Below, one piece after another: positions 169 to 16,865 of a stretch of 64,000 bases of DNA (positions are counted from its first letter, which is position 1; every line of letters starts with the position of its first letter). The notes under the pieces are model-generated. The model saw nothing but the letters and a program-made list of their open reading frames with translations, did no database searches and was not told the DNA's origin. Source of the stretch: an uncultured Chromatiales bacterium (GTDB taxonomy: Bacteria > Bacteroidota > Ignavibacteria > SZUA-365); NCBI GenBank assembly GCA_964371045.1, contig CAYJMN010000003.1, positions 1,459 through 65,458 of the forward strand, written 5' to 3'. The translations under genes were made by a program, and so were the position numbers.

Positions 169-454
169 ATGGAGCATGAATTCCACTTTATATGGGACCC
201 AAGAAAGGCTGCTGAAAATCTCGGCAAGCACGGTGTTGATTTTAATGAGGCAATGACTTTTTTCTCCGATCCTCTTTCTCTCACCATTCCGGATCCGCTT
301 CATTCCCTCGGATAGGAGCGGCATGCGACCATCGGACTGTTCGCGGGCAGGGCGGCTGATTGTCGTTGCACATACGGATCGAAAGAGCGAAATTCGTATC
401 ATCAGTGCCCTAGAAGCTACGAGCGCGGAAAGAAAAAACTATGAAGAAGATTAA
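169..454 (+). pseudogene. BrnT-family (DUF497) ribonuclease toxin, disrupted
   Basis: ATG at 169 encodes [48 protein letters not shown], then an in-frame TAG at 313-315. The conserved C-terminus (GRLIVVAHTDRKSEIRIISALEATSAERKNYEED, stop 452-454) is in a different frame. Stop plus frameshift suggests a decayed toxin gene or a sequencing error. Confidence 0.5.
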
Positions 455-677
455 AGAGCCATCCATTAGCGAAGCTGATATGAAAACTGAGTACGATTTT
501 TCAGGTGGGAAACGAGGGCGATACGCGCAACTCTTCCCCAGCGATACAATTGCGGTCGTTCTTGATCCGGAGATCGCGGAAGCGTACCCTGACTCACAGT
601 CGGTAAATCGCGCTCTCCACGCCATACTCCAGGCCGCACCTGTACGTCGAGCGAAAACCAAGCACAAAACCACCTAA
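441..677 (+). CDS. BrnA/CopG-like antitoxin (EYDFSxGKRG motif family)
   Basis: 78 aa. Motif KTEYDFSGGKRGRYA ... VVLDPEIAEAY ... SVNRALHAIL is typical of antitoxins encoded downstream of DUF497 toxins. Overlaps the 3' end of the upstream BrnT remnant by 14 nt. Confidence 0.5.
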   Translation: MKKIKEPSISEADMKTEYDFSGGKRGRYAQLFPSDTIAVVLDPEIAEAYPDSQSVNRALHAILQAAPVRRAKTKHKTT

Positions 678-1014
678 GCAGCACATCGAGCGTATCCTGA
701 CCACTCGGGAAGGCTGAAGCGCAGGGCGTTGATCGTCGTTGCCGCCACCGCGCAAGCACGCATCTACGAGGCAATCGAGCGGATCGCAGCCGAGGAGTGC
801 ACGCGCGAGCATGAGAAGCAAGCAGCACGCAACAGCCCGCACATCGAGCCAACGCGAACGAAGGCTATTTTTCGACCCAAGGTTTTGTCCGCAGACGGCC
901 CAAACATCCGGCCCGCCTCCCACACTGCAACAAACAAAGCAGCATATATTTTACCCATCCCCATTAACTCCGTCAAGTCAAAACAGCGCGTGGCCGATCA
1001 TGGGGAGGTGTTTA

Positions 1015-1131
1015 CTCTTGCGTTACATTCCCCTCTTTCTTTGCGTCGTTTCATTAAAAATATTCTTTGCGTCTTTGCGCCTTTGCGTTACATTCCCCTC
1101 TTTCTTTGCGTCTTTGCGCCCTTATCGCCGT
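1015..1131. repeat. GCGTTACATTCCCCTC-type short repeats (also at 2181-2262 and 4001-4140)
   Basis: ttgcgttacattcccctctttctttgcgtc at 1017 and 1086. Variants gcgttacattcccctccc at 2203 and 2241. gcgttgaatttt, gcgttgatttct and gcgttaaattcc at 4011, 4051 and 4109. Confidence 0.7.
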
Positions 1132-1244
1132 GATCACGAGAAGGAAATTGAGAGCGCATCGAACCTATGCCATTCCAGTCGGGCTAGCTCACATTGAGCG
1201 TAAGGACGTTTGTTGCGTGTTGCGCAACATGTTATGTTATAAGC

Positions 1245-1522
1245 ATGATCAAGTCGTTCCGGCACAAAGGTTTGCGCCGACTCTTTGAAATCGGCAGCAC
1301 TTCGGGCGTTCAGGCCACCCATGCCAAACGGCTCCGGATGCAGCTCGCGGCCTTGGATACGGCCCAAATCATCGAGGATATGGACATCCCTGGCTTTCGC
1401 TGCATCCACTCAAAGGCGATATGCGCGGTCGTTGGTCCATCACTGTCAACGGCAATTGGCGGATTACGTTCGAGTTCCAAGACGGGAACGCCTACATTCT
1501 GGATTACGAGGACTATCACTAA
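1245..1522 (+). pseudogene. higB: higB (RelE/ParE-family toxin) with a -1 frameshift
   Basis: N-terminal MIKSFRHKGLRRLFEIGSTSGVQATHAKRLRMQLAALDTAQIIEDMDIPGFR runs in frame 0. The conserved C-terminus LHPLKGDMRGRWSITVNGNWRITFEFQDGNAYILDYEDYH ends at TAA 1520-1522 in another frame. One base appears missing near 1405 (ggctttcgc-tgcat). Could be a sequencing error. Confidence 0.55.
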
Positions 1523-1815
1523 TGGCTATGCACAACCCTCCCCATCCCGGCGAGTTTATCACCGACATCTACCTTGAGCCCAACGGCATTAGTGGTCGTG
1601 AGCTGGCGCAAAAGCTGGACGTAGCAGCCTCCACTCTTAGTCGCATCCTTAAGGGTTCCAGCCGTGTCACACCCGAGATGGCTCTCCGCCTTTCCAAGGC
1701 AATTGGCCGTTCTCCTGAGAGTTGGCTCGCCATGCAGGATGCGTATGATCTGTGGGTCGCACGGCAGCACGTCAATCTCAAACGCGTTGCTAAGCTGAAG
1801 CTGGCTGCGGTCTGA
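1522..1815 (+). CDS. higA: HigA antitoxin (HTH XRE family)
   Basis: 97 aa MAMHNPPHPGEFITDIYLEPNGISGRELAQKLDVAASTLSRILKGSSRVTPEMALRLSKAIGRSPESWLAMQ. The start ATG overlaps the higB stop (TAATG). Confidence 0.8.
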   Translation: MAMHNPPHPGEFITDIYLEPNGISGRELAQKLDVAASTLSRILKGSSRVTPEMALRLSKAIGRSPESWLAMQDAYDLWVARQHVNLKRVAKLKLAAV

Positions 1816-1843
1816 GCTGCGTTTCGAGCCGACGCGAGCTCAC

Positions 1844-14961: not shown

Positions 14962-15004
14962 CAGGCCAGCACCCGATTTTGGCAATCAGGTGCTGGCTTG
15001 TTAA
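14962..15004 (+). terminator. rho-independent terminator-like hairpin
   Basis: gccagcacc ... ggtgctggc stem followed by a T-rich stretch, 45 nt after the stop of the BNR gene. Confidence 0.5.
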
Positions 15005-15157
15005 CAAATCGCGATGTTAGGGATCTGGCGAATTCAGCAAAGATTAACTGGTTTTAGCCTCACTTGTGAAAAAATCCCGGCTCAACGTACACATCCGCTT
15101 TTTCGAGTTCGCCAGGCTTCACGATACCCTTTTCATACAGACTCTCTTGCAGATAAC

Positions 15158-15694
15158 TCAGTCGGATTCTGTGTCGAATCCCTCCAGACGCTCAAGAGCC
15201 TCTCGAGGCGTATCCATGAATAGATAAAGATGGTTTAGGTCATCAGCTAAACTGATGAACCCGTGTTTAAGATAAAACTCTCTGGCCAGATCGTTTTTTG
15301 CATGCGCCTCAATGGCGCGGGCCACAATCTGTTCCGACAATGAAATAGCTCTTTCAATTGCGTCCCACAACAACTCACTCCCATAGCCCTTTTCTCGATG
15401 AGAATTTGATACCGCTAATCGACCTATTCGAACCGCTGGAATTGGATGCCGGGGAAGTCCCTTAACCAACTCTTTCTGAAGGTGGATCGTGTTGATCTCC
15501 GCCATAGCGATCGCATAATAACCCAATATCTCCGATTCATCCTCTTTATGGAGCACGTATGTGACGCTCATCCCCAGCGTCATGTGCTTCCTTGCTCTCT
15601 TGTGTAGAAAGTCATTGAGCTCGGGGACGTCACAATCGAAGCCTTTACGATCAAAGTCTGGGGAGAGCTGTGAAATGCAGCGATCAGAGGCCAT
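15158..15694 (-). CDS. GNAT-family acetyltransferase toxin (TacT-like)
   Basis: 178 aa with an acetyl-CoA-binding-like core (RLAVSNSHREKGYGSELLWDAIERA). Overlaps and sits downstream of a DUF1778 antitoxin gene. Confidence 0.75.
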   Translation of the reverse strand: MASDRCISQLSPDFDRKGFDCDVPELNDFLHKRARKHMTLGMSVTYVLHKEDESEILGYYAIAMAEINTIHLQKELVKGLPRHPIPAVRIGRLAVSNSHREKGYGSELLWDAIERAISLSEQIVARAIEAHAKNDLAREFYLKHGFISLADDLNHLYLFMDTPREALERLEGFDTESD

Positions 15695-16007
15695 GGGATG
15701 ATTTAATCTTCTGTCTGTGGCGCCTGGCAGCTTTTAACAATGCCTTGTTCGGCTTTGCGGGATTTTCCAGCATACGCATAAATATTTCAGAATCGGCTAA
15801 TGAAAGCTCAGTAGCCCGATTCTCGCGTAATACACTCTGGGCGACTTTCAGGCTATTCGACAAAACGAAGCTCATAAGGCTTTGCCCCGTGACTGTAGCA
15901 GCCGCCTCGAGCAGAGTTTTTTGTTTCGCGTCAAGACGAAGATCAATTCTACGGTCTTTTGCTGGTTTCTCGTGTTTATCGTCGATTTGAAGGGCTAGTT
16001 CTTCCAT
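15684..16007 (-). CDS. DUF1778 antitoxin (TacA-like)
   Basis: ATG at 16007. MEELALQIDDKHEKPAKDRRIDLRLDAKQKTLLEAAATVTGQSLMSFVLSNSLKVAQSVLRE is typical DUF1778. Confidence 0.8.
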   Translation of the reverse strand: MEELALQIDDKHEKPAKDRRIDLRLDAKQKTLLEAAATVTGQSLMSFVLSNSLKVAQSVLRENRATELSLADSEIFMRMLENPAKPNKALLKAARRHRQKIKSSHGL

Positions 16008-16093
16008 TTCTATGCTCCTATGCGAAATAATCAGATCAACATGCCGCATTGACTACTGAGTGCAGCAACAGATTGTTTTATCGTCCAATCTAT

Positions 16094-16190
16094 ACGGAGC
16101 AATTCCGTAAACTGACAAGAATAAGGACAGGATACGGAAAATATCCGTAATGATTCAGTCTAACGTCAAGAGTACGGCATATTTCCGTAT
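16094..16190. promoter_or_regulatory. three TACGG-N7-CCGTA palindromes at exact 40-bp spacing
   Basis: tacggagcaattccgta (16094-16110), tacggaaaatatccgta (16134-16150) and tacggcatatttccgta (16174-16190). They lie 87-180 bp upstream of the tacA-like start. Confidence 0.5.
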
Positions 16191-16436
16191 AAGTCAAGAG
16201 TCTTTTCTCCCCCCATTTTTTCCGAGCTGAGGCGTGAGTTCCTGAGATGGGCGGAGTGCGGGGAAGCCTTCTCTTGTTTACAATGCAGCTTTCAAGTCAC
16301 CAGCGATCAAGCAGGAACAGATGATTTTGATGCCCGCTTGATGCTCACTTATTGCCAATGTGGATGCCTTATAACTCCTTTCGCCCCTGCCTCTCATCTT
16401 CGTCGATGGGAGTTTGTCCACCAATATATTCGAGTT

Positions 16437-16865
16437 CTAATCCCACAGGTACCTCGGCATCGTACGGACGAGTTCGTCCGCCTTCGAACGAACCGCTCTT
16501 TCGATCCGCTCAGACGAAACCCCCTGCTCCTCAAGTTCCATCGACTTCGATGTTCGGAGGACAATCGTGAGTGCGACCTGTCTCGCTCTCTTCTCGATCA
16601 TCGTATCAAGAGATGCTTCCCTTGGAATGAGGACGTGGACGAGATCCAGATCAAGAGCATTCGCGGCCTGCCGAAGTGATCTCAACGTGATCGATCCGTC
16701 CGCTTCCCGCTCCTCCATCTCCATCACGCTCTGGGGCGATATCTCCAGCCTGGCCCCAAGTTGACGGAGCGACATCCCGAAGGCAGTCCGAAAGGCATTG
16801 AGCCAGCCTCGTTCCGGAACTGCGGATATCAGATCGGAATGTCTATATTGAGCGTAAATGTTCAT
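16437..16865 (-). CDS. mobile mystery protein A (HTH, TIGR02612-like)
   Basis: ATG at 16865. ...GWLNAFRTAFGMSLRQLGARLEISPQSVMEMEEREADGSITLRSLRQAANALDLDLVHVLIPREASLDTMIEKRARQ. No partner mystery protein B (Fic) gene is adjacent. Confidence 0.7.
   Translation of the reverse strand: MNIYAQYRHSDLISAVPERGWLNAFRTAFGMSLRQLGARLEISPQSVMEMEEREADGSITLRSLRQAANALDLDLVHVLIPREASLDTMIEKRARQVALTIVLRTSKSMELEEQGVSSERIERAVRSKADELVRTMPRYLWD

Follow-up and report, generated by a model that had tools for sequence, protein, structure and literature searches.

Integrons occur in Ignavibacteriae (Neron et al. 2022, PMC9024848). Groups of clustered attC sites without an integron integrase (CALINs) are regarded as degraded integrons, and in 95% of cases they have no nearby intI pseudogene (Cury et al. 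2016, PMC4889954); IntegronFinder asks for at least two attC sites, detected with a covariance model on one strand and separated by less than 4 kb (PMC4889954). In sedentary chromosomal integrons, toxin-antitoxin (TA) cassettes with promoters of their own are enriched, and in Vibrio they penalise array loss (Richard et al. 2024, PMC13108822). Here, we analysed a stretch of 64,000 nt (the window) from a metagenome contig of ~200 kb (CAYJMN010000003.1), derived from an uncultured bacterium placed in the Ignavibacteria. A preliminary description had reported an island of about 17 kb with at least nine TA modules in it (169-16865). In our analysis, the window from position 1 to ~12.2 kb, together with at least 18 kb to its left, is probably an integron cassette array that is rich in TA modules, is decaying and has no integrase close by. 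Since no integron integrase lies within reach, the array would be a CALIN or, alternatively, the distal portion of a sedentary chromosomal integron. What had been described as a dense "TA island" would thereby be re-filed as the relic of an integron cassette array, in a lineage that has been little studied. This is a known kind of structure and does not reveal a new kind of system; mildly novel is an attC subtype that escapes canonical-type models.

Boundary repeats and related cassette arrays

Within the first 12.2 kb, 21 of 23 genes are encoded on the plus strand, and the genes in at least 18 kb of upstream sequence are likewise co-oriented. The genes form co-oriented units of one open reading frame (ORF) or one operon with short 5' leaders, bounded by repeats of 63-90 nt that begin near a stop codon and end in GTYRR. 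The short repeat families mentioned in the preliminary description are real. One of them, here called D6, was found by a repeat search and refined by nhmmer. D6 repeats are confined to this zone and to the plus strand, start 0-50 nt past stop codons and end 11-116 nt ahead of the next start.

The D6 consensus, GGCTAGC-CCGCG-CATCGAACCG-(17 nt)-CGGCTCACG-CGCAGGAC-GTTAAnC, has the layout of an attC site: an R'' box, a 5-nt spacer, an L'' box with one extrahelical base, a variable loop, an L' box, a spacer and an R' box. Arm by arm it matches an attC (GGCTAAC-CCATC-AATCGAGCGG...CCGCTCATT-TCAGAC-GTTAGCC) of L086, an integron outside this contig. The attC architecture (R'' RYYYAAC ... R' GTTRRRY) is clean in a site upstream of the window (site A) and in sites H (6799-6866) and I (8294-8358). 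D6 is characterised by a length of 63-90 nt, a CAT-C-GA motif in L'' and an 8-nt spacer before R'; several copies are degenerate and have lost R'' or the L-box pairing.

The most decisive evidence for a cassette array comes from arrays elsewhere. Four outside loci were compared, one (L086) found through a homologue of a 127-aa ORF of the window (4344-4727, +) and three (L193, L194 and L195) reached via homologues of a 78-aa ORF (441-677, +), of which few exist. L086 is a textbook integron: its IntI shares 56-57% identity with IntI1, it has an attI junction as well as BrnT/BrnA cassettes, and the homologue of the 127-aa ORF is itself a cassette there. L194 is a co-oriented array comprising a BrnT remnant with an 80-aa gene, a hydrolase, HigBA, AHSA1 and an MqsA-like gene, the last of which is 82% identical to copies in the present contig. 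Between its genes, a covariance model of canonical attCs (R2, see below) detects sites at 61-120 (E=3.6e-5), 1680-1776 (E=0.038), 2483-2577 (E=4.5e-6) and 4262-4357 (E=3.8e-7). The site directly after the 80-aa gene (656-745) is of the D6 type: its 3' arm, CGGCTCACGCGCAGGACGTTGGGC, is near the D6 consensus, a model trained on D6 copies (R3) recovers it with E=0.011, and its positions 656-740 are 75% identical over 85 nt to positions 9764-9848 of the window (site J; E=6e-10).

L194 and L195 share 98.9% identity beginning at the upstream R' box (GTCAGGC) and are unrelated ahead of it, which would be expected for one cassette lying behind two different cassettes. In L193, the 78-aa gene has an attC of canonical type (E=0.0074) on one side and a D6-type site (E=0.0018) on the other, with unrelated neighbours. 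Homologous BrnT/78-aa cassettes with a D6-type 3' site are hence present in L193, L194 and L195 in differing neighbourhoods. Since cassette and D6-type site are shared with attC-bounded arrays, D6 appears to be a divergent attC subtype, and the BrnT/78-aa pair a mobile cassette. A further locus, L094, looked like a rearranged array and turned out to be the same locus (98.8% identity).

In the window, the repeats can be followed along the plus strand. Repeat B (67-138; nhmmer E=2.6e-15) has a canonical-looking R'' box (ACATAAC) that overlaps the TAA stop of an upstream 74-aa ORF, and repeat C (672-734; ACCTAAG-CAGCA-CATCGAGCG ... GTTGATC) has a stop codon inside R''; C scores 66 bits with R3 but is a member of that model's training set. 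A weak remnant, K, lies at 1152-1192 (nhmmer E=0.0039). Repeat D (4265-4327) reads GCCTAAT-CCGCG-CATCGATCCG ... GTTAACC, repeat E (4743-4805) folds as a bulged hairpin ending in GTTAACA, repeat F (5221-5283) has degenerate R'' and L boxes, and repeat G (5942-6004) was identified by the repeat search, nhmmer and alignment. They are followed by the attC-like sites H (GACTAAC-CCGCC-CCGGTGGCG ... CGCCGCTG ... GTCAGGC) and I (ACCTAAC-CCGCG-TGTCA(A)GC ... GCTGACA ... GTTAGGC). In site I, R'' (ACCTAAC) and R' (GTTAGGC) are perfect and the L stem carries one bulged, extrahelical base. Site J (9764-9853), an attC-like, weaker D6 copy of 90 nt, ends in GGGACGTCAGAC (R3 14.4 bits, E=0.084).

Between 4.2 and 9.9 kb, D6 repeats together with sites H and I delimit units 0.4-1.5 kb long, each with a single gene or operon. 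These are the 127-aa ORF, which is weakly DUF1841-like; its 129-aa paralogue (4816-5205, +; PF08897 E=1.9e-4), which stems from a tandem 478-nt duplication of cassette plus repeat; a DUF4160/DUF2442 pair; a Sel1-repeat protein (6080-6763, +; PF08238 47.9 bits); and the HI1419/HI1420 pair with a kinase. Other plus-strand genes of the array are a PhnB/3-demethylubiquinone-9 3-methyltransferase-domain protein (3445-3930; PF06983 162 bits), which is typical small-enzyme cassette cargo, and a RibD_C (dihydrofolate-reductase-like) protein as further cassette cargo (10338-10886; PF01872 50.6 bits).

Model searches, integrase and duplicated segments

Three covariance models were used to evaluate the sites. 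R1 was built from ten genuine attCs: five from class 1 plasmid arrays, that of aadA1 and four from L086. The aacA4 attC agrees with plasmid records at 100% identity; for the aadA1 attC a presumed sequence was used. R2 consists of R1 plus site A and contains no L194 sequence, and R3 was trained on six D6 copies alone. R1 detects one significant site in the contig, namely site A; it lies 6.4 kb upstream of the window, where it immediately follows a 511-aa gene, and scores 24.9 bits (E=6e-4 in 136 kb, E=4e-5 in 9.7 kb). Site H is marginal (R1 12.2 bits, E=0.26; R2 16 bits, E=0.053), and 40 kb of core DNA give an R2 score of 11.1 bits at best. R3 recovers site I, which was not part of its training set, with 21.2 bits (E=4.4e-4); on real integrons it aligned two genuine attCs end to end, at non-significant scores (E=0.31 and 5.6). 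In the proposed register, 64% of the D6 cells are paired, compared to 25-36% in slid registers.

A number of results weigh against an integron origin. R1 and R2 detect none of the six main D6 copies in the window, and they score site I at 8-9 bits, which is in the range of noise. D6 shows no covariation above shuffled alignments; pairing without covariation would fit an ancestral hairpin that is now decaying and, taken alone, proves nothing. The attC models are surrogates from 10 sequences, and their E-values are rough. With these models the two canonical matches, sites A and H, are 13 kb apart and do not form a pair of attCs within 4 kb. Scanning the JGI metagenomes with the D6 pattern gave 91 single matches, all due to chance according to nhmmer. 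Furthermore, the array zone contains minus-strand genes, and part of the region arose by plain segmental duplication (six methyltransferase fragments and the brnT/78-aa segment). An integrase was not detected either: tblastn found no IntI in the window plus 9.6 kb upstream, there was none among the gene calls of the next 8.4 kb upstream, and Pfam gave no integrase signal in suggestive frames of upstream sequence (L001:820-1420). No integrase lies in the 82 kb examined, and a complete integron, with intI next to attI and a first cassette, was not found there. One plus-strand frame in this sequence (L001 1186-1308, window ~-8375..-8253), ending in ..GLIGHPVALGIMILLLHRGQLYTHVLNRD*, recalls the C-terminus of a tyrosine recombinase/IntI and was rejected (tblastn E=3.1; no Pfam match).

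Further structure and profile searches gave little signal. RNAalifold found no consensus structure in the D6 copies, and single-copy DNA folds were not better than shuffles (z -1.7 to +1.2). A strict attC descriptor had one match in the island (8286-8358), a match count similar to that in shuffles, and a loose descriptor with 163 plus-strand matches was discarded as useless. Neither the D6 profile against real integrons nor attC half-site profiles against the window gave anything significant with nhmmer. R1 run over 1.35 Mb with default filters returned nothing, the known site included, and thus gives no calibration. As to boundaries of Xer/dif modules, no 28-nt dif-like motif is visible in the repeats.

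Segmental duplication is extensive. The beginning of an N6-adenine (MmeI/Eco57I-like) methyltransferase gene, spanning 600-900 nt plus ~190 nt of conserved sequence ahead of it, is present in six direct copies of 85-90% identity. Self-BLAST (83-89% identity) and an alignment of the six copies show a 5' stub in the window (908-1023, +), and the five longer copies lie upstream at ~window -17.5, -14.1, -9.4, -4.0 and -1.2 kb (positions 362-782, 3745-4636, 8540-9212, 13882-14628 and 16686-17659 of L189, the assembly of one sample); three of the copies were inspected, and in each of them the frame is broken up into two ORFs. A second copy of the brnT/78-aa/repeat segment lies 13 kb upstream (92% identity), and brnA and the 127-aa cassette are duplicated as well. 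A remnant of an MqsA-like helix-turn-helix (HTH) antitoxin gene (8961-9069, +) is 84% identical to window positions -1488..-1380 and 77% identical to the L194 cassette.

Such features are in line with the notion of an integrated-element "graveyard" put forward in the preliminary description. Remnants of unrelated integrated elements and local duplications would have gathered at a permissive locus between genes for cargo of the type IX secretion system (T9SS), and D6 would be a lineage-specific intergenic repeat with no tie to integron recombination. Besides the duplications, the truncated genes (the six-copy methyltransferase fragment, a DUF1016_N fragment and the MqsA-like remnant), the lack of an integrase and the fact that D6 is missed by canonical attC models and shows no covariation would all be expected under this explanation. 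It is difficult to reconcile, however, with the occurrence of the same gene and D6-type repeat in arrays otherwise bounded by canonical attCs, with a junction exactly at the R' box. One significant canonical attC within the same array, the constant R'' - 5 nt - L'' layout with one extrahelical base and the co-oriented units of one gene or operon also speak against it. We therefore regard a generic accessory island as unlikely. The locus is indeed accessory, mosaic and decaying, as the term implied, but its architecture is more specific and looks like that of an integron-type cassette array.

Several intergenic gaps are filled by strand-asymmetric, non-palindromic octamer/nonamer arrays (TCTTTGCG, CTCTGCGY, CGCAGAGAG), often with the motif TTGCGTTACATTCCCCTC. 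They lie at 1018-1123, 2173-2265, 2984-3019, 3130-3163, 3366-3401, 3990-4152 and window -440..-320. The array at 1018-1123 combines the octamer TCTTTGCG with a 33-nt repeat, and those at 2173-2265 and 3990-4152 are of the same kind.

Toxin-antitoxin modules and toxin loss

Families were assigned by Pfam and NCBIfam profile searches, which recovered all nine TA modules of the preliminary description at the places it had given. Nine modules lie within 17 kb, and no TA family was found in ten small ORFs tested from gaps at 22-64 kb. On account of this difference the clustering is not a chance pattern.

Two of the toxin genes are pseudogenes. The product of brnT (169-454, +) matches PF04365 (85.1 bits) only after repair of one in-frame stop (TAG, 313-315) and one frameshift near 335-345. 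The intact 78-aa ORF that overlaps it has no Pfam or NCBIfam match. It had been described as a BrnA-like partner; the role of partner holds, as the homologue in L195 is overlapped by an intact 96-aa BrnT and the ORF thus represents a conserved BrnT partner, but likeness to BrnA does not, given that no BrnA or CopG model fits. Similarly, higB (1245-1522, +) reaches 86.7 bits to PF05015 once a 1-nt deletion near 1397-1400 is repaired. It lies upstream of an intact higA (1522-1815, +; TIGR02607 107.5 bits; HTH_3), so that the arrangement is that of HigB/HigA with a toxin pseudogene. An orphan CopG-type brnA (1844-2137, +; PF12441 111.6 bits) follows, which is 84% identical at the DNA level to the brnA at 11288-11581, the similarity (to 11287-11587) beginning exactly at the brnA start.

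To exclude assembly errors, seven assemblies of different samples (different ENA analyses) were compared. The three lesion contexts of brnT and higB are identical in all seven, and the lesions are therefore real mutations. The frameshifts are thus reproducible and the locus is not conserved in relatives (see below), so that the outcome that would have refuted the preliminary description was not observed. Moreover, the BrnT of this cassette is mutated in three of four contexts: in the window by a stop and a frameshift, in L194 by a frameshift and in L193 by an internal deletion; in L195 it is intact. All genes lost in the region are toxin genes, namely brnT and higB, the brnT that would belong to the orphan brnA, and the gene for mobile mystery protein B; no antitoxin has been lost, which agrees with the selective inactivation of toxins previously noted. 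In L189, eleven single-nucleotide polymorphisms are packed into 130 nt at the brnT/78-aa junction (window 411-540); the remainder of the 3.5-kb overlap is identical to the other assemblies. A mixture of strains could explain this cluster, as could gene conversion by the paralogue (92% identical) that lies 13 kb upstream.

In the remaining modules of the array, the DUF4160/DUF2442 pair (5337-5573 and 5551-5892, +) matches PF13711 (45.3 bits) and PF10387 (74.5 bits). The HI1419 RelE/ParE-type killer toxin (6939-7229, +; TIGR02683 120 bits) and the HI1420 antidote (7237-7614, +; TIGR02684 120.6 bits) are adjacent, as are yoeB (11699-11953, -; PF06769 122.9 bits) and yefM (11950-12213, -; PF02604 84.2 bits), and in both modules the two partners are intact and score above the curated cutoffs. 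The intact brnT (11005-11319, +; PF04365 71.5 bits, above cutoff) overlaps the small antitoxin gene brnA (11288-11581, +; PF12441 119.3 bits). A shikimate-kinase-like P-loop kinase gene (7665-8282, +; PF01202 47.9 bits) falls below every NCBIfam shikimate-kinase cutoff; together with the HI1419/HI1420 pair it makes up one repeat-bounded unit (6939-8282).

Based on these observations, the following history may be proposed. Each unit would comprise a promoter-proximal ORF or a TA operon and, behind it, an attC recombination site with the order R''(RYYYAAC) - 5 nt - L'' (one extrahelical base) - variable loop - L' - 6 to 8 nt - R'(GTTRRRY). The majority of the sites in the window would belong to a single divergent 63-nt subtype, D6, and many of them have decayed. 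The array would have been assembled via IntI-mediated attC x attI insertion and later have lost, or become separated from, its integrase, and it is presumably inactive at present. By analogy with Vibrio, TA cassettes with their own promoters may have stabilised the array by penalising its loss, and toxins would have been inactivated, with their antitoxins retained, wherever this pressure ceased. Toxin genes could have decayed after recombination had stopped, and antitoxins may still be useful against remaining paralogous toxins in an anti-addiction role; the orphan brnA, which resembles the brnA of the intact brnTA, might serve as an example.

It may further be speculated, and here we are doubtful, that D6 represents a divergent attC subclass of Ignavibacteria-type genomes, and that repeated, independent BrnT losses among four copies of one cassette, with the antitoxin kept each time, point to selected, antitoxin-only 'anti-addiction' cassettes. 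If D6 were indeed an attC subclass largely missed by canonical models, integron cassette arrays in these lineages would be under-called. An attC subtype that standard models may miss matters for metagenome cassette surveys. Besides this, the locus offers a concrete case of array erosion, with attC decay, toxin loss with the antitoxin kept, and segmental duplication.

TA modules can also serve as abortive-infection systems, and integron cassettes can encode defence systems (bioRxiv 10.1101/2024.07.02.601686). Accordingly, the modules and their neighbours might act together as a functional anti-phage or abortive-infection island, as the preliminary description had suggested; the methyltransferase fragments and the Panacea, pYEATS and DUF1016 domains upstream would suit such a function. 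Yet PADLOC, applied to ten proteins of the region, returned weak HTH-type matches only and no defence-system family. The methyltransferase copies are truncated and frameshifted, two toxins are pseudogenes, two more are missing, and no complete known system was recognised. A defence island thus seems highly improbable, and this part of the earlier suggestion was not borne out.

Genomic setting and comparison with known systems

The TA-rich zone extends beyond the interval first reported and is heterogeneous. On its left it continues past the edge of the window for at least 18 kb with additional small plus-strand genes, including a Panacea/SocA antitoxin, MqsA-like HTH genes, DUF4258, a DUF1016_N fragment and a pYEATS protein. 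To the right, the array ends at a BNR/Ycf48-like T9SS cargo gene (12557-14917, +; PF14870 221 bits plus Por_Secre_tail), which is not a cassette and separates the array from a patch of lower G+C content (GC) at 15-19 kb (GC 37-50%). The locus is consequently not the single island of ~17 kb that had been proposed: the tacAT-like genes and mobile mystery protein A are part of a separate lower-GC insertion beyond the T9SS cargo gene.

In this patch, a gene for a toxin-like GNAT acetyltransferase (15158-15694, -; PF00583) overlaps by 11 nt with a gene for a TacA/DUF1778 antitoxin (15684-16049, -; PF08681 75.6 bits; GC 47%). The former has generic GNAT domains, and no TacT-specific NCBIfam model matched. 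Mobile mystery protein A (16437-17030, -) reaches 135.3 bits to TIGR02612 (cutoff 122.6), and its Fic-type counterpart, mobile mystery protein B, is absent beside it, with no NCBIfam match. Between the two loci (16100-16430, -), a short colinear likeness to protein B, interrupted by stops and non-significant (E ~5), comprises traces of the N-terminus (TPIDEDERQ) and of the Fic-motif region (..FPYP / NGGRKDS); this segment may be a decayed Fic toxin. Further right in the patch, a 63-nt direct repeat (17339-17401 and 18875-18937, 95% identical) brackets a low-GC gene for a T9SS-sorted protein (~17425-18750, GC 37-43%), which looks like a separate insertion. The core of this repeat (ATTTGCAATAGGCGGG) has an inverted partial copy at 18821-18837.

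Core genes (a BNR paralogue, glnA, lipA and secG) begin at ~22.6 kb. Glutamine synthetase (glnA, 24281-25786, -) is at most 84% identical to homologues in metagenome-assembled genomes of uncultured Ignavibacteria/Bacteroidota. In 80 related Ignavibacteria/Bacteroidota genomes, all distant relatives, none of the island genes lies within 10 kb of glnA. The comparison of synteny called for in the preliminary description showed that the island genes are absent near glnA in these genomes and could not define exact boundaries, as relatives at this level of GlnA identity are too distant. Paralogues of the BNR/Ycf48-like cargo gene at 12557-14917 adjoin glnA in relatives, and the accessory DNA appears to have been inserted among such T9SS paralogues. 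Several genes of this type lie beside glnA in relatives, and in the window the genes at 12557-14917 and 22627-23922 are 83% identical over the 355-nt region encoding the C-terminal sorting domain.

Outside the zone, a 411-aa ORF without a Pfam match (20847-22082, -) holds a 39/78-nt tandem repeat at 21283-21467 (4.7 copies of a 39-nt unit), and four very long ORFs (1602, 1650, 1610 and 1976 aa; 36289-62397, -) fill most of 36-62 kb. Rfam had no match at gathering scores anywhere in the window.

Compared to known systems, the locus resembles a CALIN or degraded chromosomal integron in its co-oriented one-gene or one-operon cassettes between imperfect-palindromic R''/L''/L'/R' sites, in a cargo of small enzymes, unknown ORFs and TA pairs, and in that neither an integrase nor a recognisable intI pseudogene was found nearby. 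It differs from CALINs in that most of its sites are of a divergent subtype, 63 nt long with 8 nt as the spacer ahead of R' and unseen by canonical-type models, that several sites lack R'' or L-box pairing, and that the array is broken by duplicated methyltransferase fragments and octamer arrays. With the Vibrio cholerae superintegron it shares dense type II TA cassettes (ParE/RelE-like, HigBA, Phd/YefM-YoeB), some of them inverted, as well as duplicated cassettes. Unlike in the superintegron, there are two toxin pseudogenes and orphaned antitoxins, the attC sites show heterogeneity and erosion instead of high homogeneity, and 'cassette-loss killing' cannot be assumed with no active integrase in view. 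Finally, TA-rich genomic or defence islands are likewise accessory, absent in relatives and marked by composition shifts, an IS (insertion sequence)-like HTH fragment and many addiction modules. In contrast to these, no integrase, transposase, tRNA boundary or known defence system was identified here, and gene order and repeat spacing are cassette-like rather than element-like.

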